A DNA stretch of 63,890 nucleotides, filler included, from Craspedostauros australis (taxonomy: Eukaryota), in NCBI GenBank assembly GCA_030167865.1. It is 13 parts of 13 records of this genome, joined end to end, with 100 filler letters (N's around TTAATTAATTAA, not from the genome) between each part and the next. Parts side by side here need not be neighbours in the genome. Positions count along the whole stretch, not along the records: positions 58,073 to 59,735 come from JALAGF010003346.1; 12 more parts are not named here. One strand, given 5' to 3'. The notes beneath the pieces are model-generated. The model did not search any database. It was given only the letters and a program-made list of their open reading frames with translations, and was not told where the DNA came from. Position numbers and translations under genes: made by a program. Below are positions 19,365 to 61,446 of the stretch, piece by piece (within the stretch, counting starts at the first letter, position 1; each line of letters begins with the position of its first letter).

Positions 19365-19736
19365 ATTCCAGTGCAGGTTCGGCCTCCGCACCTCCATCCA
19401 AACCGCAAGGGAATTGCCACTCCAACACTCACAAATTCGGGCTCCAAGGCTGTTCCAATCTCACAAGCGGTCATTCCAGAAGAAGCACCGAGAAGGATCG
19501 CAGGCCAATCCACGGCAAGAGTCCTCCACAGCACTTCCACCTGACAAACCCAAGACGAAAGCAAACACGCCCACAGCGAGTGCCAATACCGGTGCCAACG
19601 ACAGTGACAACGACAGAGCAGCCAAGCACCTACGTTGGCGGCCATCGTGACAAACAATCACACGCAACAACAAACAAAAGCACGACCAAAAGCAGCATCC
19701 AGTCCTACCACTACCAGTATCTGCCTTCCCTCCACC

Positions 19737-28355: not shown

Positions 28356-28439
28356 TGTCGAGATGTATATGTGAGTATACGTCAAGATGTACGTGTATAT
28401 GTGCATCGTTCACCCGCTATTCTCTCATACGCACTTGGA
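28356..28439. mobile_element. LTR-like element (16687 family) inserted into LINE ORF1, truncated by a gap
   Basis: TGTCGAGATGTATATGTGAG...CATACGCACTTGGA matches the copies at 16687 and 39451. Confidence 0.7.
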
Positions 28440-31157: not shown

Positions 31158-34078
31158 GAGATGAGAGAGGACCTTGCCGGAGGGGCGTCGCTGGAGCAGT
31201 GGAAGAAGCTATTCGAAGATGCGTACGACAACAAACTCCCAGCGGATTCCAACCTCACAGTGGTGCAAGTCATGGTGCGCTTGATGGCGACGTCGAACAT
31301 TTTCTCTTCGTCGATGTGGAAGCTCGGTCAGATCAGAGCAACCCACGAGACAGCGGCATGGATCGCGGTGCGCACGGTGTTCATGGAGGTCAAAGGTATT
31401 CACCTGGACAAAGACGACGACACAGAAGAGACCCAAGCAACGTCTCCAAACCCATCCTCGAAAAAGAAATCCCGCAAGCCCAGACACAAAGTGGTCGCGT
31501 ACCCAAGGAAGCAGCCACAGGCCAGGGAGCTTATCAGCGTGAACGATGCGCTCAGCGACTTCCACAAGACTTTTTTCGACATCCGACTACCTATGTCCAG
31601 AGAAGGCAGTGAAACCCCGCTGGTGCAAGTGATGGCTGGTCTCAACGCGCTACGAGCATTCATCTTCAGAGCGGATTCCAAGGCACAGATCTTGGTGTGG
31701 CGCAAGAGCAAGGAGCTCCGCCCGTGGACTGTGGCGGACGTGGAGTGGACCAACCGCGAATCACTGAAACAATTCGTGGAGAGCCTGTACGCCAGAACCG
31801 GCTTCATGACCTACACCCGTATCTGGGTGGCGCACAAGCAGGACTTGGACGTCTTCGAAGACGACGGGTCGCTTGCCTCTGCTGCGATCTCGTTCAAGAA
31901 ATCACAGATTCAGGAGCACAACATTGTGACAGCCGGGTGGCTTTTCGGTAGCCACAGTTCGATGAACACTGACGACATGGCGGAGGTCATCAACGAGAAC
32001 GAGCTGGTGAAGAATCATTGCGTCGTTCAGCTCCGCATCCGCGAAATCCAACTCGTGAAGCGCTGAGGAAGACGTCCTGACACGGATGACTTCCGCAACA
32101 GGCCCCGAGCCACGCACATCCTGTGCGGGGAGTCGAAGTCCAGAGAGTGCCGCTTGGCGATGAAAGAAATGTTTAACAACAGAGCAGACACCGTTCGCCT
32201 GTTGGGAAAACAGATGAGATTCATGCCGGACGCCCTGGATCAACGCTTCCACCACCCACCCTCGGAACTGGCGAACCTGAGCTCGATGGTTTCTCACCAA
32301 GTCGCGTTCGAGAAGAAGATGGTAATGCAAGGAGTATACTCCATCATGCAGCTGGACGTGGAGGTGCCAATCTGGAATCTCACACTTCGCGAAGTCATCA
32401 TGAATCTGCGATCCTTCGACAACCCTGACTACACCCTCTTCGTATCGGTCGATACGGACAAGATGGACCAAAACAGAACGACATTCGTCTTCCATCCGAA
32501 ACGACAGGTGGAGGCACAGGAGCTGATCTCGAAGTTGCCCTTCTTTTGCAGCAAGAAACTGGACCACAAATGCCAGGGCTGGTTCACACCGGAAGCCTGG
32601 GCCCAGAATGAGTTCTACGAAGTGGACTGGGAAACCGGCTTGGTCAAGAGCAAAGAAGAGCTTGAGATGGGCCAATTGGCTCAGGCGGGAGCTCACTTTC
32701 TGGATCTGGATGAGGAGGAGATGATTGGCCTCACCGCGGCAGACGTCGGATGGGAAGGATACGTCGACGAGCACGGAAACATGAAACCGGTACCGTTGTT
32801 GAAGTTTGAAGTGGAAATGGCCACAAATCCAAGAACACAGAACGGCGACAACGGCACGGTGGCAACCTTCGCGACAGTCACAGTCGCCCAACAGTCGGCG
32901 CACATCGGATCGGCCATCACGAGCACGGCGAGGAACAAATCAGCGAACCCCCATCGCTTTGCAACGGATCCATCGGCAAAGACGGATTTCGACGTGGACA
33001 ACCCAGGCGTAAGCATCCCTGAAGGAGACGAGAGCGACACCGACGAGGCAGGCTCCCCAGCAGGGGAGAGCGCGAAGGAAGGAGACAGCGGAGAGAGCAC
33101 GAGCGAGGACGAGGGCAAAGAGGAGGAAGTCGAAAGCGACGAAGACATCAACATGAGTGACCCAATGGAAACCGAAACTACCACGAACATCGGCGAAACA
33201 GCCGCCCAGCAAGAGTAAAAAAAACACACGTACACACACACACGACGAGACAAGACAGATACAGCCAACAGGGTAACAACACTCAGCAAATTCACAAGGT
33301 GAACCAGACAGGGCGACGCAGTAAGCAACAAGCCAAGGCCTACGCGACAGAGACGACGCGACACAGACGACACGACACAGACAACACGACAAAGACAACG
33401 ACACAGACAACACGATACAGAACAATACAAGATAGCACAAAAAGGCAGAGACAGAGACAGAGACAACAAGAGGCAGAGGCACAACACCAAAAGCAACCAA
33501 GACACCCGGCGGCTACGGAACATTCACAACACGCCGCCACGGTCAATTGCCAACAAGGGAGCACGAAAATAAAATAGGACGCGCGTCCCAACGTGACACC
33601 CACGACTACACAGCCATACCACAGCTTCCACAGAGTAGCGAACGGAGACGATGGCGGACCAAGACAACCCACCGAACGCGAGTAGGCTAAACGATGCTTG
33701 CGGAGATGCGATGGAAAGCAAAACAACAGCGACGATTCGCATTGTGTTCCAGAACGCAGCTCAAATTCCCATTCACGCCTACCAGCAGAAGAATGAAGAG
33801 ATCTTCGAATTCATAAAGACGAGCGATCTCGACATTCTGTGCCTGGCAGAAACGAACCTACGGTGGGATCACGTCCGACCCCAGGACCAATGGTCGGAAC
33901 GAACCCGGCGCCAGCTGCCAAGATCAAAACATGTCTTCGCATACAACACACACGACGACCGACGAGATCCCAGGATGTATGGGGGTGCAGGAGTGGTAGT
34001 GACAGCCCAAATCGCCGCACGCACATTCAAGAGCGGGATTGACGAGAGTGGGATGGGAAGATGGTGCTGGACGCTCAC
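31158..34078 (+). mobile_element. Ambal-like LINE fragment: ORF1 (to 33218, internal TGA at 32064..32066), spacer and ORF2 start
   Basis: ORF1 followed by an APE-type ORF2, the standard LINE layout. Confidence 0.82.
33651..34078 (+). CDS. LINE ORF2 N-terminal apurinic-like endonuclease domain, truncated by a gap
   Basis: IRIVFQN, DILCLAETN, YGGAGV and GIDESGMGRWCW are APE motifs of diatom LINEs. Confidence 0.85.
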
Positions 34079-44621: not shown

Positions 44622-45931
44622 ATGTCACAGAACAAGCCTGCTCTGCAGATGGCATCCACTACTGACTGTGTGCGTGTGTGCAAGATTTCCACGACATGTC
44701 ACTGAGCAACAGAGAATGGCTGAAGCACGACAGCATGACTCCCTACCTTTTTCCTCAATCGTCCTATCAATAGCAAGCTTAACACATAAAACAAGCAATC
44801 AGAAACACTCTTCACAGCTTACTTCCAAGTCTACTAGAGTTACATCATCGTCTGACATAGCTTTGTCCTCAACATCAAACGGTGCCAAAGCCGGTTGAAG
44901 GACAGATCATCCTCCTGACAGCGTGCAAAAGACACGGAATACCAACTGTCCGAGTTGAATTTCGTAAGTTCCCGTTGTTCTCGCGAGTTGAAGTTCACTT
45001 AAGAACAGACTACGAGTTCGATTTTCATGTCCTGTTGTGGCACGATCCGGAAGGGAAGGCCTAGCTGACTGCCAGACTCAGTGAAGCTGTTGATGCAGTT
45101 AGCTAGGGATGGCTGTCTGGGAAGATGGTAGTAGGTGACAATGAGTAGATTAGTGCTGATGTGCTGATCTTGAGTTGTGCTATTTGTTACATTGAATAAT
45201 CTGCATTGTGAGTTGATCAGTTTAAGATGTAGGATGAAGAAACGATGTTCAGTTGGATGGTGCGGCTCTGCACTGACCCTCAGAGGTTCAGTGCTGAGAA
45301 CAGACGAAGCTCCTCTCTCTCACTCTCTCCACTATCTGTAGTAGTTGTTCTGCACTCAAGTACAAAGCCTTGACATCTTGATTGAGGTTGCGATTGAGAA
45401 CACAGGAGGGCAGGTGATAGGAATTACAGTTGGATTCCCTGCTTGTGTTGAAGCAGGGCGGATCTCTTCATTGTTGTCGAGTAGTGGTAGTAGGTGTCAT
45501 AGCTGACAAGGGAATTGAGGCAAGTTGCAATTCAAGGATTCAGGGGAGCATACAGTTACCAGAACAGCTTGGATCGAGTCATTTGAGTAGTTTGAGTCAG
45601 TGATGATCAGTGAATGGAAAAAGGAGGAAAAAAGAATGGAGGATTTGCTGTTGCCGTAGCTGGAAGATTTCGCGCCGAAGTGAATTTCGCGTGGCAATCT
45701 GGGACACACTGAAATGGAAAGTAGTCTGTTCTTAAGTGAACTTCAACTGTGCTCGCCCATTTGTTGTTCAATCGTGTGTACTGATGGTAGTACAGACAAC
45801 ACAGTCACCGGTCAACAGTTATATGAGGGGAAATACCGTTTTTCGCAAGTTTTAGTGATGTCATGTTTTTTTAACTGATCAGGTTGTTTCAGTCGTTGAT
45901 TCTGTCACAGATTCTTCCACAATGTGGTTCC
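44622..45931. repeat. 1.3-kb non-coding segment present three times (also 51992..53303 and, reversed, 54558..55589); probably one locus with two haplotypes
   Basis: Identical for about 1030 bp. The third copy ends at the first polymorphism between the other two. Confidence 0.85.
44986..45748. repeat. Segment flanked by perfect 28-bp inverted repeats AGTTGAAGTTCACTTAAGAACAGACTAC (44986..45013 and 45721..45748)
   Basis: Direct read; the same pair occurs at 52356..52383 and 53091..53118. Confidence 0.9.
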
Positions 45932-46074
45932 TGTTGGCATACTGCCCACGGACGATGACAGACGCCGTGGCAATCACAGGACAGCACAGAAGAGATCGTC
46001 CCTTCCGGTCATAAATCACATTAGTAATCATCCACACACACACACACACACACAGTTCCCCTCAGATACTGACA
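45932..46074 (+). repeat. 5' LTR (143 bp, TG...CA)
   Basis: Starts exactly where homology to the empty allele breaks (TGTTGGCATA), ends ATACTGACA and is followed by GGTTATAGCC. Confidence 0.82.
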
Positions 46075-46084
46075 GGTTATAGCC
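46075..46084 (+). promoter_or_regulatory. Putative primer-binding site GGTTATAGCC
   Basis: Immediately 3' of the LTR; resembles the GGTTATGGGCC internal tRNAi-Met PBS of copia-type elements. Confidence 0.6.
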
Positions 46085-46193
46085 TTTCGCGCTCTCCTCT
46101 CCTCGCGCTTTGTGTTCAAGGACGTTCCATTCCCTTACACTCAGTGGTATCTCTTCCCTGCCCCTTCTCCTCTTCCCTTCGCTTCGCTCCAAC

Positions 46194-47900
46194 ATGACCT
46201 CCGACGACGACGTGCTTTCTGATGCTCACACCATCTCGAAGCGGCTCGGTTGGCGTTGGTTCGACTCCATGCTCGAGGCCCTTGGTCTTGCCACTGACGG
46301 CGAGCTGTGCGATCTTCTCGACTCCCCCGATGACCTCTTCCATCAGCGCATGCTTGCGTGGGGCGACGATGATGGGGTTCGCATCCGTGGCATGTGGAAA
46401 CTTCGCGCGTGGTACGTGCTGCATGCCGATTCGGATGGTTGGGCCGGCGAGATCACCCCACGGGTGTTTCGGTCCTTCCTTCGCAAGGAGCGTGTAATTC
46501 CTGAGGCGTTCGCTCCATCCCAGGGCCGCCGCGCCCCTGCGACAAGCACTCCGCCTACTCCTACTGACGACGACCGTGCCAGTGGCGATGACCGTGCCCG
46601 TGACGGCGGTGACGCGCTCCCAGTGGTGCTAGAGGGTGAGATGACACCTGCTACGCCTACTGATGGTGTCGACGCGCTGCCCTCGGATGCTCCTCGCGTG
46701 CCTGAGTCTTCGACGTCTCCTGCCGCTGGTGATGCTCCTGAGTGGTGTGCTGCTGGGGGCGAGGACTTCGACTACATCACGGCATCTGGAGTTCCCTACG
46801 GCCTTGCCAATGCCAGTCCGTCGCTCCGCCGCCATGACACCTACCACATTGGCCCTTCTCTTGATCGCCTTGAGTACGGCGCCCAACAGACTTGGGATAA
46901 GTGGGCGCTGAAGCTTGTGGATGACGATCCGCATCGAGTCTTCCAGTGGTATGCTCAGTTCCAGGCAGCGGCTCTCTGCGTCGATCTCCACGTCTGCCCC
47001 TTGGATCTCTTCCGACCCCATCTGTCGGTCATCCCTGGCAATGTGGTGGGTCGCCGCGTCTTCGAGATGAACTCCAAGCTCGTTGTCAAGCTTCAAGCTG
47101 ATGGCGTCATCAATTCCAGCCATGCCGGCTTGCAGCTCAAGTATGCTGGCAGTTTTGGTGTTCTTCCCCACCAGCTGTCGGCGTACATGTTCCTGCACAA
47201 GATCCTTGCTGGGGCGTTCGACCAGGTGCAATCTCAGGTCCACAAGCATCCCACCTTCGAGGGGTCTGTGTCTGAGTTTGCCACTCGCCTCCTTGGGTTC
47301 CAGCATGTGGAAGGACTCGTTTTTCACCGTACGGTGACCGACATGGAGGTCAGCCGTCTCTTCCTTGAGGAGCTCCGGTCTCATGGGTACTCCCTTGATC
47401 ACTACCGCACGGCCATTCGCTCCGTGACCTCGCCCAAGTCCTTGCCGTTCAATCTCCACATTGAGCAGCTTGCTCAGGAGATTCCGGATCCTCCTGGATC
47501 TGGCGTGCAACCACTTGCTCATCGTGCTCAAACCCGGTCCCAACGGGCTCCGCGCGATGGTGGACGTGGCCAACGCCCTGAGCGCCCACGCCATGCGTTC
47601 TACAAGCCTGATCCGGGTGCATACTGCGAGGCGTGCTGCTCTATGGGCCACCGGGCCGCCACGTGCAAGATGTTTGGGCGCACTGCTCACCTCATCCAGT
47701 ATGTGGCCGACCATCCTGACGATGCCCGGCGCATTCGCGAGAGCTACCGCGAACACTTTGGCCCTGACAAGTTCAAGTCTACTGCTCGTGCCATCCAGCG
47801 CTTCGGCACTGTTGAGGACGCCCGAGTTGAGGATCTTCTGGTGTCCGATGACGTCGTTCATTCGCTCGACCTGGATTTTTGGTCCGCCGGTCAGGAGTAG
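46194..47900 (+). CDS. gag: Copia Gag
   Basis: Long ORF after the PBS with a CX2CX4HX4C knuckle (CEACCSMGHRAATC); ends with TAG at 47898..47900. Confidence 0.88.
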   Translation: MTSDDDVLSDAHTISKRLGWRWFDSMLEALGLATDGELCDLLDSPDDLFHQRMLAWGDDDGVRIRGMWKLRAWYVLHADSDGWAGEITPRVFRSFLRKERVIPEAFAPSQGRRAPATSTPPTPTDDDRASGDDRARDGGDALPVVLEGEMTPATPTDGVDALPSDAPRVPESSTSPAAGDAPEWCAAGGEDFDYITASGVPYGLANASPSLRRHDTYHIGPSLDRLEYGAQQTWDKWALKLVDDDPHRVFQWYAQFQAAALCVDLHVCPLDLFRPHLSVIPGNVVGRRVFEMNSKLVVKLQADGVINSSHAGLQLKYAGSFGVLPHQLSAYMFLHKILAGAFDQVQSQVHKHPTFEGSVSEFATRLLGFQHVEGLVFHRTVTDMEVSRLFLEELRSHGYSLDHYRTAIRSVTSPKSLPFNLHIEQLAQEIPDPPGSGVQPLAHRAQTRSQRAPRDGGRGQRPERPRHAFYKPDPGAYCEACCSMGHRAATCKMFGRTAHLIQYVADHPDDARRIRESYREHFGPDKFKSTARAIQRFGTVEDARVEDLLVSDDVVHSLDLDFWSAGQE

Positions 47901-47922
47901 ATGCATCTCCTGATGAACGGCG
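47873..47922 (+). promoter_or_regulatory. Putative -1 ribosomal frameshift signal: G_GAT_TTT + 5-nt spacer + stem-loop
   Basis: Heptamer 47873..47879 is in the gag frame. CGCCG/CGGCG and TCAGGAG/CTCCTGA stems follow, and pol is in the -1 frame. Confidence 0.78.
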
Positions 47923-50900
47923 TTCTCTCATGCATCGTCGCAGCGGGGCACATGCAGGCCATCACTCTGGTGGGGTGTCCGCGCTTACCATACCTGCTTA
48001 CGCTGGCGTTCCGCCAATCAAGATGGCCAGCGTTGCCATTGCACATGCGTGTCGCGTCCACTCTGCCCGGCATTCGAGTGGTCCTGAGCGTGCGTGGGAT
48101 CCTGGTGGCGGTCCTGGACAGTGCGATGTTGGCGCCAACGTCAGCGCCACGCCTGAGCGGTCCATCATCAGCCGGTACCGGGAGTATGCCCAGCCTGTGC
48201 TGCTCGCCGCTGCCAATGCTGGGTCGCCGTGCATGACATGCCCTGGGGGTGGCGTCATCTACGTCCCCAATGATGATGGTGGGGTCATCCACGTTGAGGC
48301 CATGTACTGCCCTGGGCTGTCCACTACGCTCATTTCGCCTCAGGCGGTCGTCCGACAGACTGACAACGACTTCGAGCGCTTTGTTCTCAGCTGTGGTCTG
48401 CACGATGCCACCATCACCTTTTGTGGACCTGGTGCACCTGTGTCCGCTACCATGCGACAGCACAATGGCCTCTACTTCTTCGATGATGGTGGTGTCCGTG
48501 CTCCCACGGCGTTTGCGCTGCAAGGATCTTCACCTGCACTGCGTGCTGAACTTTGGCATATGCGGCTGGGTCATTCTGGCATGCAGCAGCTTGCTCAGTT
48601 GCCCAAGCACTGCACTGGGTTACCTTCGCGGCTGTCCCAAGGTGCTCATCCCATGCGTCATTGCACTGCTTGCAGTCAGGCGCAGCGGCAAAAGGCAGCG
48701 CATGGGCCCAACGATCCTGATGTGGTGGCCGTCGCTGGTGCCCGTTTCCATGCGGATTTTGGGTTCATGCGGTCTTCTGGTCCCCGATATGGTCGGTCTT
48801 CGTCTCGAGGCAGCGCCAAGCATCATCGTGTGGTCCAGTCGTTGGAGGGATTCACATCCTACCTGTTGGTGACAGATGCATACACTCGGTACACGTGGGT
48901 ATTCCCCACCAAGGATCGGTCGCCGCCTGTGGACATCTTTTCGAAGCTCTTGCGCGACTTTGGGCGGCGCGATGGTCACCGTGCGGTGCGAGTCGACACC
49001 GGTGGAGAACTCGCTCGGTCCAGTGCGTTCCAAGAGATTGTACAGTCTGCTGGGTACAACCTCGAACCCACCGGTGCTGGCTGCTCGTGGATGAACGGCA
49101 AGGTGGAACGTCTCAACCGCACCTTTGGTGTCATGACTCGAGCGCTGCTGTACTCCTCTGGACTTCATCCGCGCTTCTGGGCCAGAGCTCTTGTACATGC
49201 CGTGTATATCAAGAACCGCTTGTGGCACAAATCCATCGACGCTACACCCTACGAGCTCCAACATGGTGTGAAGCCCGACGTCAGTCACTTGCGGGTGTTT
49301 GGATCACGTGTGACGGTTCGCAAACCTGGGTATCCCGCAGCCAAGCTGGATGTGCACACTTATGATGGCATATTTGTGGGGCACACAGCTACTCCATCGC
49401 TTCATGAGTACTACGACCTGGACTCAGGACGGATCAAGACTGCGGGCAACATCGTCTTTGACGAGGCTCACTTCTCTTCCACTGAGCGCCCACCTGGACC
49501 TCAATTGCTCTTCGAGCTTGGCTTCGAGATGGAAGTCGAGTCTGATGGTGTCAAGGTACCGGACAAACATGAACCAGGTCGCACCAGTCTACCTCTTGAG
49601 TGCATCGAGTCCATCACTCGCGACACAGATGATATCCATGCTGCGGCTGCTGCCTGTTCTATTCCGGCATCGCCCAGTTCGGACATTGTTGTCATGGCAG
49701 GTGATCCGTTCGACCTTGCTTTTGCTCAGACCATCGACATCACCGGCGACGATGACACGGCTGGCTTGGAGTTTTCCTACGATGACGCTCGCGGCCGTCT
49801 GCAGCTGGTGCGGTGCCGTCCAGGGTCCAAAGCTGCGCGCATTCCTCGCTGGCGCACTCGCATGCGGAATGCGCATCTGCTGCAGTTCCATGACAGCCCG
49901 GTGCACACCATGGAAGACCTCGCTCTCGCTGTGGCCAATGCTCGTAAGGGTGGCTTGACTCAGTGCGACGCCATCTTCGCCTTTGATGAGGTGCGCAATG
50001 CGCTGTCGCAGCGAGGGGTCCCTCAGCTGTACTTTGATCAGCTCCGGCATATTCGCGGGATTCTTGATGATGTGCAGCCTGCGGCGAATCAGGTGCATGC
50101 AGCTCCCAAGCTGAGCCGCCGAATGCTCCTTCAACGTGATGACTGGGAGGAATGGCAACAGGCTGAGTTCAAGCAGTTGGATCAGTATCATCATCAAGGC
50201 ATGTTTGGGACTCCTGTTGACGCGCCGCGCGATGCTGCCATCTTCAATTGGGTCTGGGTCTACGTGGTCAAAACGCACGAGAACAATCGCAAGAAGGCTC
50301 GAGCAGTTTGCGACGGATCCACCCGCGGCGGCAGCGTCCGAGTGTTTGGCCATACTTATGCGGCGACACCTGATCTCACCGAATTCAGGCTCCTGGTGGC
50401 AATTGCTGCTATTCAAGGGCTCCTTGTCTTTGGTGCGGATGTTGCGAATGCTTTTGCAGAGGCACCCGCCAGTGCTCAGCGGTACTACATGCGTGCGGAT
50501 GCTCCCTTTCGCAGCTGGTGGCAACACAAACATGGGGTTCACCTTGGCCGCAATGCAGTGGTGCCTGTTCTCAAGAACTTGCAGGGCCACCCGGAAGCAC
50601 CTCGACAGTGGAGTCTCCACGTTAATGGGATGCTCAAGGAGATGGGGTTTGCTGCCACCACTCATGCTCCGTGCCTATACACTGGGTCCATTGATGGGCA
50701 CAAGCTCTACGTCCTACGGCAAGTGGACGACTTTGCTGTTGCGACGGCAATGGAACATTCGTTCCAAGTCTTTTGCGACATGCTCGATCAACGGCTGCGT
50801 CAACCTATCACACGTCATGGCATTTTCTCTCACTACAATGGCCTGGACCTTACGCAGGGGCGCCATCACATCACTGTCCATTGCACTACGTATATCAACA

Positions 50901-51823
50901 AAGTGCTGGCACGCCACGATTGGAGTGACCTGAGGTCATCGCAACGCCTTCCCATGCGGTCTGACAGTGGGTATATCCGCAAGCTTGACCAAGGTGTGGG
51001 TCCTGATGACGATGGCGAGCGTGCTGCACTTCAGTCTGAATTTTTCAGCTATCGGCAGGCTATCGGTGAACTCATCTGGGCGATGGTGTCATGCAGACCT
51101 GACATCTCCTTTCCGGTTGTCAAGCTCAGTCAGTTCTCCATCAACCCTGCCAGAATCCACTACGAGGCTGTGAAATATCTCTTTCGGTATGTGGCTGCTA
51201 CTCGCACACATGGCATCACCTACTGGCGTGCACAGCCGGTTCTGCAGCTACCTCAGGTTCCTGATCCGCGACGAATGTCCCCTTCTGCTGACAAGTCGCA
51301 CCAGGTGGCTGACCAAGACACCATACAGGCGTCGTCCTTGTACGGGTACGTTGACGCGGATTGGGGCTCCGACACGCGCCACCGGCGGTCGACCACTGGC
51401 ATCGTATATCTCTTTGGCGGCGCTGCCATTGCTTGGAAGACTCGGATCCAGCCTACCATTGCTCTCAGCAGCTCTGAGGCCGAGTTTGTTGCGGCCAGCG
51501 ATGCTGGCAGGATGGCACTCTGGCTCCGCTCAATCCTCGACGAAATTGGCGTGCCCCAACAGCACGCCACGCTTCTTTACGAGGATAACAGGGGAGCTCG
51601 GATGATGGCGAATGCCAGCCAGCCCACGAAGAACTCAAGGCACATCGACATTCGCACGTTTGCAGTCTGCGACTGGGTGGAGCGTGATCTCATACTCATC
51701 GCGGACGTGGCTTCGGATCTGAATGCGTCGGACGTGTGCACCAAACAGACGTCGATTGTCTTGTTCCATCGACATACCGACCTCATCATGGGTCGGGTTA
51801 GGCCGTTTTATGTCGGAGGTTGA
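47879..51823 (+). CDS. pol: Copia Pol (protease, integrase, PDZ-like insert, RT, RNase H), in the -1 frame relative to gag
   Basis: CDVGAN protease; LWHMRLGH...CTAC; HADFGF...RVDTGGEL...NGKVER integrase; KKARAVCDG...RQVDD RT; YVDADW...EDNRGA...RHIDIR RNase H. No internal stops. Confidence 0.95.
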   Translation: MVRRSGVDASPDERRSLMHRRSGAHAGHHSGGVSALTIPAYAGVPPIKMASVAIAHACRVHSARHSSGPERAWDPGGGPGQCDVGANVSATPERSIISRYREYAQPVLLAAANAGSPCMTCPGGGVIYVPNDDGGVIHVEAMYCPGLSTTLISPQAVVRQTDNDFERFVLSCGLHDATITFCGPGAPVSATMRQHNGLYFFDDGGVRAPTAFALQGSSPALRAELWHMRLGHSGMQQLAQLPKHCTGLPSRLSQGAHPMRHCTACSQAQRQKAAHGPNDPDVVAVAGARFHADFGFMRSSGPRYGRSSSRGSAKHHRVVQSLEGFTSYLLVTDAYTRYTWVFPTKDRSPPVDIFSKLLRDFGRRDGHRAVRVDTGGELARSSAFQEIVQSAGYNLEPTGAGCSWMNGKVERLNRTFGVMTRALLYSSGLHPRFWARALVHAVYIKNRLWHKSIDATPYELQHGVKPDVSHLRVFGSRVTVRKPGYPAAKLDVHTYDGIFVGHTATPSLHEYYDLDSGRIKTAGNIVFDEAHFSSTERPPGPQLLFELGFEMEVESDGVKVPDKHEPGRTSLPLECIESITRDTDDIHAAAAACSIPASPSSDIVVMAGDPFDLAFAQTIDITGDDDTAGLEFSYDDARGRLQLVRCRPGSKAARIPRWRTRMRNAHLLQFHDSPVHTMEDLALAVANARKGGLTQCDAIFAFDEVRNALSQRGVPQLYFDQLRHIRGILDDVQPAANQVHAAPKLSRRMLLQRDDWEEWQQAEFKQLDQYHHQGMFGTPVDAPRDAAIFNWVWVYVVKTHENNRKKARAVCDGSTRGGSVRVFGHTYAATPDLTEFRLLVAIAAIQGLLVFGADVANAFAEAPASAQRYYMRADAPFRSWWQHKHGVHLGRNAVVPVLKNLQGHPEAPRQWSLHVNGMLKEMGFAATTHAPCLYTGSIDGHKLYVLRQVDDFAVATAMEHSFQVFCDMLDQRLRQPITRHGIFSHYNGLDLTQGRHHITVHCTTYINKVLARHDWSDLRSSQRLPMRSDSGYIRKLDQGVGPDDDGERAALQSEFFSYRQAIGELIWAMVSCRPDISFPVVKLSQFSINPARIHYEAVKYLFRYVAATRTHGITYWRAQPVLQLPQVPDPRRMSPSADKSHQVADQDTIQASSLYGYVDADWGSDTRHRRSTTGIVYLFGGAAIAWKTRIQPTIALSSSEAEFVAASDAGRMALWLRSILDEIGVPQQHATLLYEDNRGARMMANASQPTKNSRHIDIRTFAVCDWVERDLILIADVASDLNASDVCTKQTSIVLFHRHTDLIMGRVRPFYVGG

Positions 51824-53841
51824 CGGTTACCCGTCCTCTCTGTTACGACAGAGTCGATTCTTTCCGCTAGCTTACGCTAGCGTGGGGGGGGNNNNNNNNN
51901 NNNNNNNNNNNNNNNNNNNNNNNNNNNNNNNNNNNTTAATTAATTAANNNNNNNNNNNNNNNNNNNNNNNNNNNNNNNNNNNNNNNNNNNNATGTCACAG
52001 AACAAGCCTGCTCTGCAGATGGCATCCACTACTGACTGTGTGCGTGTGTGCAAGATTTCCACGACATGTCACTGAGCAACAGAGAATGGCTGAAGCACGA
52101 CAGCATGACTCCCTACCTTTTTCCTCAATCGTCCTATCAATAGCAAGCTTAACACATAAAACAAGCAATCAGAAACACTCTTCACAGCTTACTTCCAAGT
52201 CTACTAGAGTTACATCATCGTCTGACATAGCTTTGTCCTCAACATCAAACGGTGCCAAAGCCGGTTGAAGGACAGATCATCCTCCTGACAGCGTGCAAAA
52301 GACACGGAATACCAACTGTCCGAGTTGAATTTCGTAAGTTCCCGTTGTTCTCGCGAGTTGAAGTTCACTTAAGAACAGACTACGAGTTCGATTTTCATGT
52401 CCTGTTGTGGCACGATCCGGAAGGGAAGGCCTAGCTGACTGCCAGACTCAGTGAAGCTGTTGATGCAGTTAGCTAGGGATGGCTGTCTGGGAAGATGGTA
52501 GTAGGTGACAATGAGTAGATTAGTGCTGATGTGCTGATCTTGAGTTGTGCTATTTGTTACATTGAATAATCTGCATTGTGAGTTGATCAGTTTAAGATGT
52601 AGGATGAAGAAACGATGTTCAGTTGGATGGTGCGGCTCTGCACTGACCCTCAGAGGTTCAGTGCTGAGAACAGACGAAGCTCCTCTCTCTCACTCTCTCC
52701 ACTATCTGTAGTAGTTGTTCTGCACTCAAGTACAAAGCCTTGACATCTTGATTGAGGTTGCGATTGAGAACACAGGAGGGCAGGTGATAGGAATTACAGT
52801 TGGATTCCCTGCTTGTGTTGAAGCAGGGCGGATCTCTTCATTGTTGTCGAGTAGTGGTAGTAGGTGTCATAGCTGACAAGGGAATTGAGGCAAGTTGCAA
52901 TTCAAGGATTCAGGGGAGCATACAGTTACCAGAACAGCTTGGATCGAGTCATTTGAGTAGTTTGAGTCAGTGATGATCAGTGAATGGAAAAAGGAGGAAA
53001 AAAGAATGGAGGATTTGCTGTTGTTGTAGCTGGAAGATTTCGCGCCGAAGTGAATTTCGCGCGGCAATCTGGGACACACTGAAATGGAAAGTAGTCTGTT
53101 CTTAAGTGAACTTCAACTGTGCCCGTCCATTTGTTGTTCAATCGTATGTGCTGATGGTAGTACAGACAACACAGTCACCGGTCGACGGTCATATGAGGGG
53201 AAATACCATTTTTCGCAAGTTTTAGTGACGTCATGGTATATTCCAACTGATCAGGTTGTTTCAGTCGTTGATTCTGTCACAGATTCTTCCACGATGTGGT
53301 TCCAATCAAAACCTGAGATGTGCGCACATCACAAACACAAACATCGTGTCACCGTCACGTTTGTCATGTCTTGTGAACATCGTGGAGACCACGATGTTTG
53401 GAATCAACGAGCACACAACACGTTATCAAGGCGTGCAACATCGATTTGGGTGTTGCGATTGACAAACTCACAAATCAATCTCATAAATTGAGCCAAGTAG
53501 TCATCGAGCTTGAGGACCCAAGGAACTCGAGAGCAGAAGCAGCAGCAGTAGGTGGCAGCTCATCGCCAGAACCAACCACATTCCACCCCCCATCCCCCAT
53601 CAAACCAGTGAGTTCAATCATCTCACAGGTAGTCTGTCCAAGAGCCATGCTTTAGAATCATTCACATGCGCTGCTGATTGCACGCGGTTCCTCACTTTGC
53701 ACCTTGATCCTCCACCTTCGTTCCCCTTGATACCTCATATTACTATGCACGCACTGATAACACCACCAAACACAACCAAACCTTCCACCACAGCACGCAC
53801 GTCGAGTCCACGCATTTTCCACGACTGTTTCCCCCATCATC

Positions 53842-54457
53842 ATGCCGCGTCCACCGGATCGTGCCTTTTCTGTCCTTCACAATGCTTGTCGATCAGGCAA
53901 ACTGGACAGAGTCCGGCTCCTGGTCCCGGCTGGCCAACACAACGACAGCATAAACACCAAAGACGAACAAGGCAATACCCCATTTCATCTCGCTTGCATG
54001 GAGGGGCATTTGGGCGTGGTTGAGCACTTGGTTGAGTCCATTCCAGAGAGCATCGACTTCACCATCAAGAATACAAATGGTCAAACACCATGGCAAGTCG
54101 TTTGTGCGATGGGGCACACTAGTGTGGCTCAGTATCTGGCCAAATCAGCGCGCTTCAATATGGATATCAACTCGCAAGAGGCAAATGGTGACACAGTTCT
54201 GCATCTTGCGTGTCGCCGCGGGAGCACGGACATGGTGAGATTCTTGGTTGAGTCACACGATGACACCTTGGACATCAACGTGATGAACAAAGCTGGCGAG
54301 ACTCCATTCGGATGTGCCTGCGCACTTGGATGGCAAGAGATTGCTGGGTACTTGACTGAATCGGGCGTGCTCAATGTGGATGTCAACCTGCATGGCGAAG
54401 ATGCGTTGTCCCCTTTTCATGCTGCTTGCAGTCATGGCCATGTGGACTTGGTGAAAT
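53842..54457 (+). CDS. Ankyrin repeat protein, truncated by a gap
   Basis: Repeated GNTPFHLAC / GQTPWQVVC / GDTVLHLAC / GETPFGCAC / SPFHAAC units. Confidence 0.92.
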
Positions 54458-56070
54458 NNNNNNNNNNNNNNNNNNNNNNNNNNNNNNNNNNNNNNNNNNN
54501 NTTAATTAATTAANNNNNNNNNNNNNNNNNNNNNNNNNNNNNNNNNNNNNNNNNNNNCAACAGCAAATCCTCCATTCTTTTTTCCTCCTTTTTCCATTCA
54601 CTGATCATCACTGACTCAAACTACTCAAATGACTCGATCCAAGCTGTTCTGGTAACTGTATGCTCCCCTGAATCCTTGAATTGCAACTTGCCTCAATTCC
54701 CTTGTCAGCTATGACACCTACTACCACTACTCGACAACAATGAAGAGATCCGCCCTGCTTCAACACAAGCAGGGAATCCAACTGTAATTCCTATCACCTG
54801 CCCTCCTGTGTTCTCAATCGCAACCTCAATCAAGATGTCAAGGCTTTGTACTTGAGTGCAGAACAACTACTACAGATAGTGGAGAGAGTGAGAGAGAGGA
54901 GCTTCGTCTGTTCTCAGCACTGAACCTCTGAGGGTCAGTGCAGAGCCGCACCATCCAACTGAACATCGTTTCTTCATCCTACATCTTAAACTGATCAACT
55001 CACAATGCAGATTATTCAATGTAACAAATAGCACAACTCAAGATCAGCACATCAGCACTAATCTACTCATTGTCACCTACTACCATCTTCCCAGACAGCC
55101 ATCCCTAGCTAACTGCATCAACAGCTTCACTGAGTCTGGCAGTCAGCTAGGCCTTCCCTTCCGGATCGTGCCACAACAGGACATGAAAATCGAACTCGTA
55201 GTCTGTTCTTAAGTGAACTTCAACTCGCGAGAACAACGGGAACTTACGAAATTCAACTCGGACAGTTGGTATTCCGTGTCTTTTGCACGCTGTCAGGAGG
55301 ATGATCTGTCCTTCAACCGGCTTTGGCACCGTTTGATGTTGAGGACAAAGCTATGTCAGACGATGATGTAACTCTAGTAGACTTGGAAGTAAGCTGTGAA
55401 GAGTGTTTCTGATTGCTTGTTTTATGTGTTAAGCTTGCTATTGATAGGACGATTGAGGAAAAAGGTAGGGAGTCATGCTGTCGTGCTTCAGCCATTCTCT
55501 GTTGCTCAGTGACATGTCGTGGAAATCTTGCACACACGCACACAGTCAGTAGTGGATGCCATCTGCAGAGCAGGCTTGTTCTGTGACATGGATATGCTTC
55601 AAGACACGCGCAGGTTCTGCAAGATGGCAGATTTGGCAGGTGGCAGGAGTGCATGAGCTGGAGGATGAGCTGAGCGTGGATTGTGGTTCAACTACACACC
55701 ATGCATGTGGTAGCCTTTCATCCCGGTATCGGGTTGGGATACCAAATACCATGTACGCGACAACAACAATTGAGTCCGGTAACGTTTTGGGATCAAGTAT
55801 GTCCCAACTCGGATCATCTTGTATTCCACGATTCGCTCGACCGATACATCACCATTAAGTCGTGCATGAGTTGAATCCCGAACCACATCAAGAAATCCAA
55901 CAACAAACGAGAACGCTGCGTTTGGCGCCACCACCAAAGCACAAATGCATCTCACTCAGCTCAGCCTCTCACACTCTGCAGACCGCGTCCATCTCTGAAA
56001 GGTGATCAGGACCACAAAAGGAACAACTCCAACCACGACTCCAACAACTCCAACCACGGCGAAGAACACA

Positions 56071-57972
56071 ATGGTAATGATTCGAAGTGGCAGCAACGCG
56101 TTCAGTGCTCATTCTGTCGACAGGACGATACGATCGATGCCATGGATGCGACGATGCGCGGCGAGATCTGCGCAAGCAGCGGTGGCAAGGGAGGGGCTGA
56201 GAGTCCATCATCATCATCATCGATACTGCCGACGCTCCTTCTCAATGGGTCGTCATTGCCGTCGGACTACGACCATGCGTATGACAACGCAGTTGCTGCC
56301 GTCGAACACATCCACGCTCAACTCCATGAGCACGATGGCACCGCGCGGGACGGATGCAGGTGGAGGTGACGCCTTGGTGTCCGATGAAGAGGCTTCCGTC
56401 ACGCGCACAAATCCCGCGGGCGTTGCCGCTCCGTACACGTGGAGGAACTTACTCGGACCGTCGGCCAGAGCATCGTGGAGGGCCTCCGATCCCAAGCTGC
56501 CCGAACATCTGGAATCCACCATTGCTGACATTCTCAAGGACGGACAGCGCACAAAGCGCCAGCTGCGACGCAACTACGAGCGTGTGCTCAAGACGCAGCG
56601 CAGATTGTCGGTCTTCCGCGAACGCGACCGGCGTGCCATGGTCAATCCTGGTGACAAAAGCAGTGCCAGCAACCACCAGCTTGATCCTGCCAAGTTCCCG
56701 CCGGTGTATTATGGGCCGGATCAAACCCTCGCGGACCTCACCTTCCGCTTCGATTCCAACTACGCCATCGCCAAGAGGGTGCTCCAAGAGGCCAAGAGCC
56801 TCACGCAGTGCAAACCGCAGCGGGTGCTGGATTTCGGAATCGGATGCGGCGCGGCATCGGCGGCGGCCCTGGAGGTCTTTGGCGGTTCCATCGATTGGAT
56901 TCATGGCATAGAACCATCGCACAGCATGCGAGAATGCTCGGAACGTCTTTTGGAGCATTCCAGAAACAGCGGCAGCAGCAGCGGTCACAATCAAGACAAC
57001 GGCGGCGCTATTCGCACAACCTTCAGCAGCAGCCTCTCTGCCGAGTCCACCAGCACGGGCGGATTCGATCTCATCCTCGCCTCGTACACGGCATCGGAGA
57101 TACCTCACGTCACGGCCAATTTGACCGCCGCCGCCATCCTGTTCCAGCGATGCAATCCAGGCGGTATCGTCGTCTTCATCGAACCTGGCACGCCGGATGG
57201 ATTCAACACTCTGCGTGCCACGCGCAACATGCTTCTGGATTGCTGCCCGCCGGGGGATCCGGATTTCGAATGGGAGGAACGCTGTCACGTCATCGCGCCC
57301 TGCACGCACAATGGAAAATGCCCCATGGAACGTCACAAGAAGAATTCCTCGCGACCATCGTCCGTCCAGCTGGCGGGTGGCAAAGATATCGAGCAAGACT
57401 TTTTTGACGGTGACGATTTCGAAGAGATCGAAGATGACAACGACGTCGATGGTATGGATGGATTCGAAAGTGACGACAACGATTATGATGATGATGATGA
57501 TGATTATGACCATGATGACGAGGATGATGATTTCTTCGATGGTACCGACGAGAGTGACGATGGTGACAGGGAACAAGGCTCCATCGAAGATGCCGACTAC
57601 ATTGACCTGATGGCCAATTCTGCTGGATTGATGTCGGAAACGGAATTGTACGATTCCTCATTTTGCAGCTTCGTGCAAACCATGCCTGGCAAGGGACACA
57701 AACGAAAAGGCGAGAAGTTTTCCTATTTGGTGGTCCAAAAGCGGCTGGCGAACAAGGGCGCGAAGACTGCAACGAATGCGCGCCATGGCAATGACAATGA
57801 CGATGATGATGCTGTCCAGCATCACGAAAGCAAGATGGAGAATGCCACCAAGATCCTTGCCAACTTGCACCGGGGCGCGAAAGATCAACACATCCCGACG
57901 TTGGAGAAGTACTATCAGCAGGCGATCGATTTGGAAGAGGAATTTGTGGAGGTGGACGATGACGAGTTGGGA
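56071..57972 (+). CDS. RSM22: Mitochondrial small-subunit assembly factor Rsm22/METTL17 family, 3' end truncated
   Basis: VLDFGIGCG SAM motif, IEPGTPDGF, HVIAPCTHNGKCPM, FCSFVQ and EKFSYLVVQK; Arg-rich presequence-like N-terminus. Start codon uncertain. Confidence 0.88.
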
Positions 57973-58074
57973 NNNNNNNNNNNNNNNNNNNNNNNNNNNN
58001 NNNNNNNNNNNNNNNNTTAATTAATTAANNNNNNNNNNNNNNNNNNNNNNNNNNNNNNNNNNNNNNNNNNNNAG

Positions 58075-59532
58075 ATCAAGTTCTACATTCAAGGTGTTCT
58101 GAACATCACCAGTGAAGAGATTGCTGGTGCTTTGTTCGAGCAAGGCTTGATGAGCTTCGATGGTCTCCTCTCACTCACAGACAATGACCTTTGCAAACTG
58201 TGCAAACGCATTTGCGTAGGCAGTGGGCTGATCGATAACCCTGCCTACAAGGGAGGCAAAACATCTGTACCATCCCAGATCAAGGATCCAGGAACCACCA
58301 TCGGGTGGCTCCACGAGCTCAGACTGCGTCAACTCCGTTATGCTCGGTTTCATTTTCATCGCATTCAACGTCCATTCTCTGCCATGGAAGCACCCATGGA
58401 TCGCCTTTTGGCTCTGTGGGAACTGTTCCTCGAAGAGAAACGCATCAAGGACGCACCGGCGATGGACATGCCCGATCAGCTCACCAGGGTTGAGAACGTA
58501 CGAGACAGTCTGGAGGACATCCAGAATTACTTGGACAGCACGCTTGGTGCTATCGATGCTCCGCTGGCGTACATCATCCGAGAGGACATCCGCAAACCAG
58601 AAGATCGAACACCACCCATCCATACCGGATTTGGTGTGCCATCCATGCAAGAAGAACTCGTCGATAGAGCACTCCATGAAGGGGTGAAATACCATGCAGA
58701 CAATGCGGCTGTATGGCAAGTCATTCGACACGTGACACATGGTGGTCCGGCATGGGCTTGGGTCCAAGGGTATGAACGTACCAGGAACGGTCGCTCCGCA
58801 TACATCGCTCTGAAAGAGCACTACCACGGGGACTCGTTCCAAGCGCGGACAAAGGCAGCGGCCTCACGCACCATTGCCACACTATTCTATGACGGCAAAG
58901 CACGTCACTTCCCATTCGAGAAATACGCACAAACGATGAACTCTGCTTTTGAGGATATGTCCAAGTGCGGCGAACCTTTGGTGGAAGCCGCCAAGGTCCG
59001 CCACCTCATTACCGGGATTCGTGATCAGCGTCTTGCCAATGCTTGTGACTCCATCATGATGAACAAATCCATTGCCCTCAATTTCCAGACAACCGTCAAC
59101 ACTCTCAGCGAAGTCCTTGATCGCAAACAATCCACCACGTCCGCACGCAACATTGGATCAATGGGAAGAGGCAAGGGTGGTCGCGGCAACCGCAACAATG
59201 CATCCAACAAAGGAGGTCGCGGAGGTCAAGGCAAGGCAAAGAAGTATGACCCCAACATGGTCATCACAGACCGCCACTACACACCAGAAGAGTGGTCTGT
59301 CATGTCGGCCGCTCAGAGGTCCAAGGCAATTGAGATGCGCCAAGAGCGAGATAAGCGTCGTGGGGTCATGGTTGTGGGTAGGAATACGTCGTCCAAACGT
59401 CCCAAAGAGGACAAGGACGATTCTTACCAACCACCAGCGACATCCGGCACGTCCAATGACCAGACCAACAACAGTCGACAGGCTGGTATCGGCAGCATGA
59501 TGTCGCGTCGCAACCAACAAGGCCAATCCTGA
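58075..59532 (+). CDS. gag: Copia Gag (5' partial), ending in TGA at 59530..59532
   Basis: Open frame from the contig start; Gly/Arg-rich nucleic-acid-binding tract and no zinc knuckle. Confidence 0.82.
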   Translation: MKFYIQGVLNITSEEIAGALFEQGLMSFDGLLSLTDNDLCKLCKRICVGSGLIDNPAYKGGKTSVPSQIKDPGTTIGWLHELRLRQLRYARFHFHRIQRPFSAMEAPMDRLLALWELFLEEKRIKDAPAMDMPDQLTRVENVRDSLEDIQNYLDSTLGAIDAPLAYIIREDIRKPEDRTPPIHTGFGVPSMQEELVDRALHEGVKYHADNAAVWQVIRHVTHGGPAWAWVQGYERTRNGRSAYIALKEHYHGDSFQARTKAAASRTIATLFYDGKARHFPFEKYAQTMNSAFEDMSKCGEPLVEAAKVRHLITGIRDQRLANACDSIMMNKSIALNFQTTVNTLSEVLDRKQSTTSARNIGSMGRGKGGRGNRNNASNKGGRGGQGKAKKYDPNMVITDRHYTPEEWSVMSAAQRSKAIEMRQERDKRRGVMVVGRNTSSKRPKEDKDDSYQPPATSGTSNDQTNNSRQAGIGSMMSRRNQQGQS

Positions 59533-59735
59533 CCAATCCGCGATCAACAGCGACAAGTGACATCTGTTGGTCAATCGTTATCGTCGGATACTCCACGCGC
59601 CGAACTCGACTCACACGCCGACACCTGTTGCTTTGGTGATACGGCCTACATCGTGCATACAACCAATCAGACAGTCACCGCGACCCCTTTCATCGACTCA
59701 CTAGGGAAAGTCAACAACGTGCCCATCGTCACCGC
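59533..59735 (+). CDS. pol: Copia Pol start (aspartic protease), same frame as gag, no ATG; truncated by a gap
   Basis: PIRDQQRQVTSVGQSLSSDTPRAELDSHADTCCFGDTAYIV...VTATPFIDSLGKVNNVPIVT. Confidence 0.82.
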
Positions 59736-59835: not shown

Positions 59836-61446
59836 CAGAAGGCCAACTACGCCGCAGAAATAGTCATCTTCGCATGTCATGTCCCCATCATTGCGCACGA
59901 ATGCGTTGTAGTAGGCCAAGGGCAGGCCAACGAACCAGTACGAGAAGAAGACGACAGGCACGCTGATCCACTGTTTGCCGCATCCCTTGAGGGTGCTGTT
60001 GAATGCGTACAGCACGCCGTCGGCGAAGATGTAAACGGCGAGCAATGGGATTGTTTGCGCAGCCTCGTCGACGACACCATCTTCGCCGGGTGCGAAGAGT
60101 GATGGGAAGAAGGTGTGGGGGACTGCCATCAAGATCGTGCCAAGGGTGAGGGTGAGCGCGACTGTGCACAAAGTGCAGACAGTGCCTGCAAATTTGGCGG
60201 CGTGTGCCTTGCCTTCTCCCAAGAGGTTGCTGACTCTGGTGGCCCCTGCAATTCCAATTCCCATGGACAACGAGAAGCAGGTCACGTTGATGGATTGGAA
60301 CAGGCTCATCCCACCGAGCGCTGATTCCGGACTGGGCGAAAGTTGCCCTGCAAGGATGACGATCGTTTCGGACGACCACAATTCCGCGAAAGCGAAGATG
60401 CCCGGCACCGCCAGGACGAGGTATTGGATGATGCCATAGAGCGATGATATGGCAGCCTTGAATTCGGGCCAGAACGTCAGCTTCGTCTTGTTGATCGCGA
60501 TCGCGGAGGTGCTCTTGAGGACACGCTGCCGTCCGTGCTCGGTACCGAAAACGTACGCTGCCATGATGACCGATTGCGACACTTGGAAGCAGCTTGTTGC
60601 GACCGCGCAACCGATGTAACCAAATCCCATGAAGTAGATGAAGAACCAGTTGAGCGGCGCATGCAAAGCCAGTGAAACGCACGATGCGTACAGCGGTACA
60701 TCCACCATCCCGATGCTTTGAAGCCATGTCGTGAGTGTGTAAACGAGACAAAGTCCCCAGAAGGCTGGCACCAGAGCTGTGAGATAATCGGATGCCATTC
60801 CGGCGATCACTTCCGCTTGTCCCACCTTCAACAGAAAGTCCTTGGTACCAGAGAGCCACCAGATTGCGAATGGTAGCAAGATGGCGTGCTGGATGATCAG
60901 CGCTCTGAAGAAGACGACCAATGGTGGAAGTGGCGTGTCGTTCCCTGTACCCACACCATCGGCATCAGCGTCTTCTCCATCCGACGGAATCGTTGCGACA
61001 ATGAACTGCGCAGAGTCTGAGACGGTTTCTTCGTCCGTATCGTATTGCACCTGTGCTTTGATAGCCTCGAGCCTGGCGGTCATCTCTCCATTAGATTGGC
61101 CAGCGAGAGTCGTTGTGGCGGAGTTCAGCCCGCTCGAAAAACTCATCCCAATGATGTTGCTGAGCGATGTTGCCAGCGCGGCCGCTGTGAGCTCATTGAC
61201 GCCCAGCCCACCTGCGAAACGGATGGAGATGAGCCAGGGCAGCTTGTTGAGGATCGCGCTCTGCATCGACGGGACCGCCAGCTTCAGCTGCTTCTGAACT
61301 TCGACGGAGAATCGATCCCAGGACATGGAGTCGGAGCCCTTCATGTCGTCCGATCCGATGGAACTGCCATCATCTTGAGTTGTTGTCCATAGGAGAGGCG
61401 GTATTTCTGTTGCAGACTCGGTGTCATCTCTCTTCTTTGGAGTCAT
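59836..61446 (-). CDS. MATE family efflux transporter, 3' end lost in a gap
   Basis: QLKLAVP...ELTAAALATS...TTLAGQSNG...LAVPG...ELWSSE...ATRVSNLLGEG...LKGCGKQ; multiple hydrophobic segments. Confidence 0.92.

Follow-up and report, generated by a model that had tools for sequence, protein, structure and literature searches.

A conserved in-frame UGA between gag and pol in a clade of Copia-type retrotransposons, and its likely bypass by readthrough

A fragment of a Copia-type long terminal repeat (LTR) retrotransposon in the genome of Craspedostauros australis (assembly GCA_030167865.1) has a TGA stop codon between gag and pol, with pol continuing in the frame of gag. The fragment is part of a 63,890-nucleotide (nt) stretch of DNA, referred to here as the window. 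Related elements carry TGA at the same boundary over deep divergence, and comparison of their sequences gives solid evidence for the gag-TGA-pol arrangement. Programmed readthrough of this UGA is the likely explanation.

It is established that retroviruses and some LTR retrotransposons set their ratio of Gag to Gag-Pol by means of a leaky stop in frame. What is new is the comparative evidence that a leaky stop may be the standard layout in a very large, mostly environmental Copia clade, with repeated switches to a single open reading frame (ORF).

The gag-pol junction

The features of the fragment are as follows, in window positions.

58073..59735, + strand: fragment of a Copia-type LTR retrotransposon, a single 1663-nt contig, both element ends cut by the contig ends
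58075..59529, + strand: putative gag reading frame without its N-terminus, open for 485 codons from the beginning of the contig (translation, open-frame count)
59491..59511, + strand: C-terminal gag motif G-S-M-M-S-R-R (family pattern G..M[ST][RQ]R), 6 codons 5' of the stop, conserved in two protein alignments
59530..59532, + strand: in-frame TGA between gag and pol, candidate recoded stop
59533..59533, + strand: C at position +4, directly after the TGA
59533..59733, + strand: pol start in the gag frame, 67 codons to the contig end, without stop or Met
59542..59572, + strand: hairpin, GATCAACAG (59542-50) with CTGTTGGTC (59564-72), 9 bp with one G-U pair, 13-nt loop, 9-nt spacer from the stop
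59602..59628, + strand: ELDSHADTC, the protease-position motif of the clade, (E)LDS[HN][AC]DT

The gag frame ends in CAA TCC TGA, and the C at +4 (59533) opens the context TGA-CCA-ATC. From the TGA through ELDSHADTC to the contig end at 59735 there is neither an ATG nor a stop. Altogether 552 codons of the element are visible (485 and 67 around the TGA), and none is another stop. The original prediction had been made from the sequence of the window alone. Its reading of the junction is correct by direct sequence check: the CAA TCC TGA ending, the unshifted frame, and the lack of ATG or stop as far as ELDSHADTC. The same check verifies the 9-bp stem with its single G-U pair and 9-nt spacer, and an alternative pairing of TGACCAA (59530-36) with TTGGTCA (59567-73), which are exact complements over 7 bp.

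The contig holds most of gag and 67 pol codons. Alignment with gag-like relatives places the missing 5' end at about 30 codons. The start of pol aligns to the protease (PR) region of single-ORF Copia polyproteins. Since only 67 pol codons lie on the contig, the reverse transcriptase (RT) and integrase (IN) of this element are out of view. Searches with blastn and tblastn find no second copy of the element within the window.

Conservation of the TGA

The relatives come from one scan of metagenome contigs, from which 80 loci (L numbers) were fetched. Of these, 46 have a tblastn match to the PR piece and, with the window, make 47 sources. An in-frame TGA lies 17-26 codons upstream of the (E)LDS motif in 35 of the 47. 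All 35 in-frame boundary stops are TGA, with no TAA or TAG among them; where decayed copies are disabled by stops at other places, TGA, TAA and TAG all occur. For 34 of the 35 TGA sources, all but L056, PR shares its frame with the nearest gag match.

A frameshift between gag and pol is rejected, because gag and PR share one frame. A random nonsense mutation is rejected as well, because the TGA is conserved at the boundary across relatives, which places the stop beyond chance. The original argument that the stop sits at the gag/PR boundary, where random nonsense would rarely fall, is thus borne out. The expectation of a conserved TGA followed by C in related families fared less evenly. TGA itself is conserved, never replaced by TAA or TAG, but C at +4 is found at just 9 of the 35 junctions, the window included. 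The others have A (21, all in one family from related samples) or G (5).

The remaining sources behave differently. In L055, L064 and L065, gag and PR are in different frames with a TAG nearby, and these copies look decayed. Eight of the 47 sources have no stop near the junction, the nearest in-frame stop being far upstream, and in L074 the frame upstream of PR is altogether free of stops. These nine make up the single-ORF clade, apart from the decayed L059.

The TGA carriers fall into about 14 diverged junction lineages, with gag identities of 30-45% and long branches (0.5-1.2 changes per site). The tree, built by a quick method from 43 gag sequences, has many open forks. In it the window, L008, L004 with L010, and L003/L013/L001 with L002 form separate long branches, all with TGA. 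The family with G after the TGA (the G family) and the family with A (the A family) are two further clades, and L032 is nested in the single-ORF clade. The fewest changes between TGA and fused states on this tree are three.

Many of the related loci are decayed by their open-frame counts. Some are not. L014 has 521 codons, a TGA, and 1386 further codons to a TAA. L002, taken as a 6395-nt circle, has 500 codons, a TGA, 1323 codons to a TAG, and 929 nt of non-coding sequence. Both carry the RVT_2 reverse transcriptase domain in the second part. The ends of the L002 contig (1-123 and 6396-6518) are identical over 123 nt and the unit is circularly permuted; the contig is probably an LTR-collapsed or tandem assembly. 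In ten sources (the window, L001, L002, L003, L004, L007, L008, L013, L014 and L033), the frame has no second stop over the reach of the contig. The boundary TGA is compatible with intact elements.

Sequence context after the stop

Several lineages carry a stop context known to be leaky. TGA-CTA-G is found in L004, L008 and L013, TGA-CTA-T in L010, and TGA-CGG in L003. L001 has TGA-CAA-TCA, L032 has TGA-CAA-TTA, and L002 has TGA-CAC. The G family has TGA-GTY or TGA-GCT, and the A family has TGA-AGC. According to a review, UGA-CUA and UGA-CGG are the motifs at which alphaviruses and other viruses carry out type II readthrough (PMC13517186); PMC10085805 also supports this classification.

With UGA-CUA, UGA-CGG and CAR-YYA scored as leaky, the 14 lineages include four with CTA, one with CGG and two with CAA-TYA; none of these occurs in the A and G families. 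CTA accounts for 90 of the 10,296 codons in these ORFs (0.87%), yet in 4 lineages out of about 14 it is the codon directly after the stop. Were the lineages independent, the binomial probability of this enrichment would be about 5e-6; as L004 forms a sister pair with L010, at least three of the cases are independent.

The codons right after the stop look translated. The ratio of nonsynonymous to synonymous change (dN/dS) in them is below 1 (0.26-0.58) in four of five pairs and above 1 in one, on very small counts.

Identity of the element

The window ORF is called gag from its position upstream of PR. Its sequence gives little to go on in domain databases. Against Pfam, the window gag with the short pol piece has no significant match, the best being DUF7083 (E 0.05), and Retrotrans_gag matches one of 18 gag members (E 0.006). 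A search of PDB sequences with the gag profile returned only RGG-rich ribosomal or RNA-binding proteins, matched through their RGG tails. The first parts of the L002, L003 and L004 pols have no Pfam match. In place of a zinc knuckle, the window gag has an RGG/GRG-rich stretch at about 59173-59250. Gags across the clade have such a stretch at the position where many Copia gags have Cys-Cys-His-Cys (CCHC) knuckles.

The relatives are more informative. Single-ORF relatives are polyproteins of 1645-1924 residues, with 23-34% identity by search and 24-34% by alignment. Each comprises the same gag and (E)LDSHADT motif, followed by an integrase core and an RVT_2 reverse transcriptase. RVT_2 (PF07727), with a cut-off of 31.6 bits, scores 57.4 bits in the L014 pol, 53.8 in the related protein P0005, and 62.2 in L002. 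Precomputed matches exist as well for P0001, P0003 and P0005-P0012. In P0005, the integrase core (rve, 813-871) precedes RVT_2 (1317-1492), and the alignment places the PR motif upstream of both; the rve score of 29.6 bits is slightly below its cut-off of 32.6. The Copia order of PR, IN, RT and ribonuclease H (RH) is thus present, in the relatives only.

Because the relatives that share gag and PR carry an integrase core, RVT_2 and this order, the Copia label is supported. The window contig itself ends before RT, so its assignment as a fragment of a Copia-type LTR retrotransposon, though supported, reaches RT through homology. Terminal repeats are found in some relatives. L068, of the single-ORF clade, has 851-nt direct repeats at both ends that are 95.7% identical, and L015 has terminal direct repeats of 285 nt at 86%. 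An LTR search in L014 found none.

Gag-only relatives are nearer to the window gag, at 32-41% identity and 370-583 residues (17 aligned); for 17 gag-like proteins the identity is also given as 35-41%. In 15 of these 17, the protein ends within a few residues after G..M[ST][RQ]R. The window gag ends in the same way, with GSMMSRR, six residues and the TGA. The motif is present in 63 of 184 related proteins that were fetched. Among the 63, 52 end 0-14 residues past the motif (mode 6), four run on into the PR motif, and seven do otherwise.

The clade is large: clustered at 50% identity, the results of an exhaustive protein search number 2412 clusters with E of 0.001 or below. In the ESM Atlas, the nearest cluster is 93% eukaryotic. 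A phylum is recorded for just 15 of its 408 members, and Bacillariophyta is the most frequent. Carriage by diatoms is therefore probable, as a lead only. Relatives sought in prokaryote genome contigs and viral contigs gave no confirmed match.

Proposed mechanism

Readthrough is favoured because the frame is unshifted, no restart codon follows the stop, the boundary stop is always TGA, and leaky contexts are enriched. In the clade, gag and pol would form one reading frame broken by a single conserved UGA. Most ribosomes would terminate there and release Gag. A minority would decode the UGA by a near-cognate tRNA and continue into PR, IN, RT and RH. The outcome would be Gag-Pol at a low, fixed ratio, with Gag as the default product. 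In the window copy, the only recognisable signal would be the UGA followed by C, to which the 9-bp hairpin may add. For all members, the bypass by readthrough, its efficiency and the inserted residue are what we infer from the sequences.

The original proposal that this lineage makes Gag-Pol by readthrough therefore divides in two. Bypass of the stop gains from the TGA in 35 of 47 sources, from the shared frame in 34 of 35, and from leaky codons in several lineages. The part given to the stem-loop is not supported.

Evidence against readthrough

Several observations weigh against this reading. The window context, TGA-CCA-ATC, is no canonical hexamer, and only its +4 C is favourable. The A family (21 loci) and the G family have neither a known motif nor a detected conserved structure, and since the 21 loci are copies of one family they count as a single lineage. 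The scan turned up no close copy of the window's own family, the best identity being about 45%, and the conservation seen is that of the stop in distant relatives. Among public sequencing runs, none was listed as containing the contig, RNA runs included. The set of motif-bearing proteins overlaps the metagenome loci, and is silent on the identity of the stop and on the frame.

Some relatives have a sense codon where others have the stop: the single-ORF clade, P0027 (W) and P0157. P0027 copies the L032 junction (L032:1449) almost exactly, but reads W in place of the TGA. P0157 (988 aa) has an L008-like junction and passes through without a stop. Both are natural stop-to-sense switches. Trp is a residue expected from near-cognate decoding of UGA, and in this respect the W of P0027 speaks for readthrough.

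The hairpin in the window is real, but a role for it in readthrough is not supported, because its energy matches that of shuffled sequences and it has no counterpart in relatives. Within 48 nt of sequence the hairpin is the fold of lowest energy (-9.9 kcal/mol), but its z is -0.95 and 33 of 200 shuffles are equally stable. When the context is widened to 60 nt, a different fold appears (z -2.0, equalled by 7 of 200 shuffles), and at 71 nt and 141 nt other folds displace the hairpin, with z near 0. Helices of 9 bp or more without a break, with a spacer of 6-12 nt and a loop of 3-20 nt, are rare in the window: they follow 283 of 123,424 background positions (0.23%) and 9 of 2309 TGA triplets (0.39%), by a criterion chosen after the stem had been seen.

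At comparable spacing, a helix of even 6 bp is absent from all 16 representative related junctions. When minimum free energies are set against 200 shuffles for each of 17 junctions, the shuffles that fold equally well number 15 or fewer at only 3 of them. RNAalifold predicts 11 pairs in the G family (5 sequences) and 22 in the A family (21 sequences), none of them with a compensatory change, in a comparison of low power. The original view of the stem-loop as a readthrough stimulator is thus left unsupported on three counts: ordinary energy, no helix in the related junctions, and no compensatory pairs in the two alignable families. Known stimulators start at +9 to +16 and are 50-177 nt long, according to the same review (PMC13517186). 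The window hairpin starts at +13 in that numbering and is 31 nt long.

In single folds of the G family, AGGRC pairs with GUCCU about 20 nt past the stop, despite a 15-nt indel between subgroups (L014:2011-2110, L023:1465-1564, L079:3019-3118, L033:1491-1590 and L080:1123-1222). This pairing is not kept in the consensus fold of the family and shows no compensatory change.

Other explanations

A further point against readthrough comes from Tca2 (pCal), a Ty1/copia element of Candida albicans and the one tested Copia element with an in-frame UGA. Its in-frame UGA junction gave no readthrough in Saccharomyces cerevisiae reporters, and the bypass has been called non-canonical (PMC2194720). The window clade might use a route of this kind: an internal promoter, internal initiation, distant signals or a factor of the host, in place of near-cognate decoding driven by context. 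For Tca2, the junction alone is reported to give no readthrough and to hold a minor promoter, although the gag-pol RNA is still the source of pol (PMC2194720). Lineages with TGA-A or TGA-G, lacking known motifs and detectable structure, would fit as well. Independent initiation, however, needs no shared frame, yet 34 of 35 sources have pol in the gag frame, and no conserved ATG follows the stop. A boundary that is only ever TGA, together with the enrichment of CTA and CGG, bears the hallmarks of leaky decoding. Such a route is rather unlikely.

A related and tentative suggestion is that bypass of the UGA may need no known cis signal. The A family, the G family and the TGA-CCA of the window have no canonical hexamer or conserved structure, yet the stop is kept over deep divergence. 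In that case the bypass might be a property of the host (in diatoms or their relatives, unusually leaky termination at UGA or a natural suppressor tRNA), or a non-canonical bypass like that of Tca2 might extend across Copia elements of distant hosts.

It is improbable that the window TGA is just the inherited stop of a dead fragment, with no present function and a hairpin formed by chance. Such decay is common among the related loci, and with 1.66 kb visible the window shows no LTR, RT or second copy of the element. The 552 visible codons, however, have no other stop, unlike decayed relatives, and inactivity of this copy would leave the nature of the signal unchanged.

Splicing could also fuse gag and pol, if a short intron removed the stop from some transcripts. 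A GT at 59485 and an AG at 59549-50 bound an in-frame 66-nt piece that includes the TGA, but such pairs are expected by chance. Removal of this piece would delete the conserved G..MSRR motif, which single-ORF relatives keep inside the polyprotein. Splicing needs neither a TGA nor an unshifted frame, and both are conserved. We consider it quite doubtful.

Decoding of TGA as a sense codon or selenocysteine by the hosts, with no recoding, has nothing for it beyond the open frame. It is rejected as most improbable, because TGA occurs once in 1908 codons in L014 and once in 1824 in L002 (one per about 1,800-1,900 codons), always at the boundary, and gene callers end dozens of gag ORFs there. Readthrough of the UGA stays the likely reading of the junction.

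The surrounding window

The window consists of 13 contigs, and the linker map gives the joints as N44-TTAATTAATTAA-N44. Several of the contigs overlap one another at 98-100% identity. The three at 26395-28439, 28540-31057 and 31158-34078 do so in every pairing, and the one at 44622-51891 does so with those at 51992-54457 and 54558-57972. These look like branches of the assembly graph or haplotigs.

A second, unrelated Copia element is found on the contig at 44622-51891. It has an ORF1 (46110-47900) and an ORF2 (47879-51823), the latter with RVT_2, SH3_retrovirus and gag_pre-integrase. ORF2 is in the -1 frame relative to ORF1. The open frames overlap at 47852-47897, where there is a run of five T (GAT TTT TGG). 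The overlap is possibly a -1 frameshift junction or a homopolymer indel. If the frameshift is real, one genome holds Copia families that differ in their Gag-Pol strategy.

Adjoining contigs carry four host genes, listed as a DUF6824 protein (3396-5963, -), an AAA_16 and TPR_12 protein of 1427 aa (19635-23915, +), an Rsm22-like mitochondrial methyltransferase (56002-57972, +) and a MatE transporter (59836-61446, -). This is eukaryote-type content, consistent with a protist genome.

Comparison with known systems

Expression of Gag-Pol through an in-frame stop is established for gammaretroviruses and some LTR retrotransposons (PMC10085805). For one Copia element, Tca2, such expression has been proposed. 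No paper stating readthrough in diatom elements came up in a full-text literature search; part of the ground may be covered by Gao et al. 2003 or by the Maumus et al. 2009 supplement, both outside that search. The word readthrough does not occur in the main text of Maumus et al. 2009 (PMC2806351). That paper describes the Copia elements of diatoms (CoDi), several groups of which lack CCHC knuckles (PMC2806351). The window gag likewise has no zinc knuckle, a likeness drawn from description.

Tca2 is close in layout. It is described as having gag and pol in one frame split by a UGA, with an RNA structure proposed downstream (PMC2194720). By description, not by sequence, it shares with the window clade both the Copia type and the gag-UGA-pol order in one frame. 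It differs in its fungal host, and several lineages of the window clade have UGA-CUA or UGA-CGG. The clade would offer a second Copia test case beside Tca2, and its junctions are a natural set for studies of UGA decoding in diatoms. Gene calls could also be corrected, as these elements are now split into a 'hypothetical protein' and a start-less pol.

The Ty3/gypsy elements Tj1, Tosmo1-3 and Tcry1 of fission yeasts have an in-frame junction TGA in a conserved TGA-CT(A/G) context, along with single-ORF relatives, and the stop of Tj1 is reported to be essential (PMC10085805). The in-frame TGA and the single-ORF relatives in the group are paralleled here, as is the context in the lineages with TGA-CTA. 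These elements differ in their order, PR-RT-IN, and in a strictly conserved 8-nt block, in contrast to the widely varying flanks of the window clade.

In the gammaretrovirus Moloney murine leukaemia virus (MoMLV), gag and pol are separated by UAG. An H-type pseudoknot of 50 nt, experimentally proven, starts about 8 nt past the stop, at +12 (PMC13517186). The stop there is UAG, not UGA, and the pseudoknot contrasts with a 31-nt candidate hairpin that is not conserved. Both systems have an in-frame junction at which readthrough makes, or in the window clade would make, Gag-Pol, and the structures start at nearly the same place (+12 and +13).

Alphaviruses have a UGA followed by CUA or CGG (type II) between nsP3 and nsP4, with natural sense-codon variants (PMC13517186). 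They are RNA viruses, and their stem-loops of 126-177 nt (in Sindbis virus, SINV, and Venezuelan equine encephalitis virus, VEEV) have no comparable counterpart detected in the window clade. Their sense-codon isolates are paralleled in the clade by the single-ORF relatives, P0027 and P0157.

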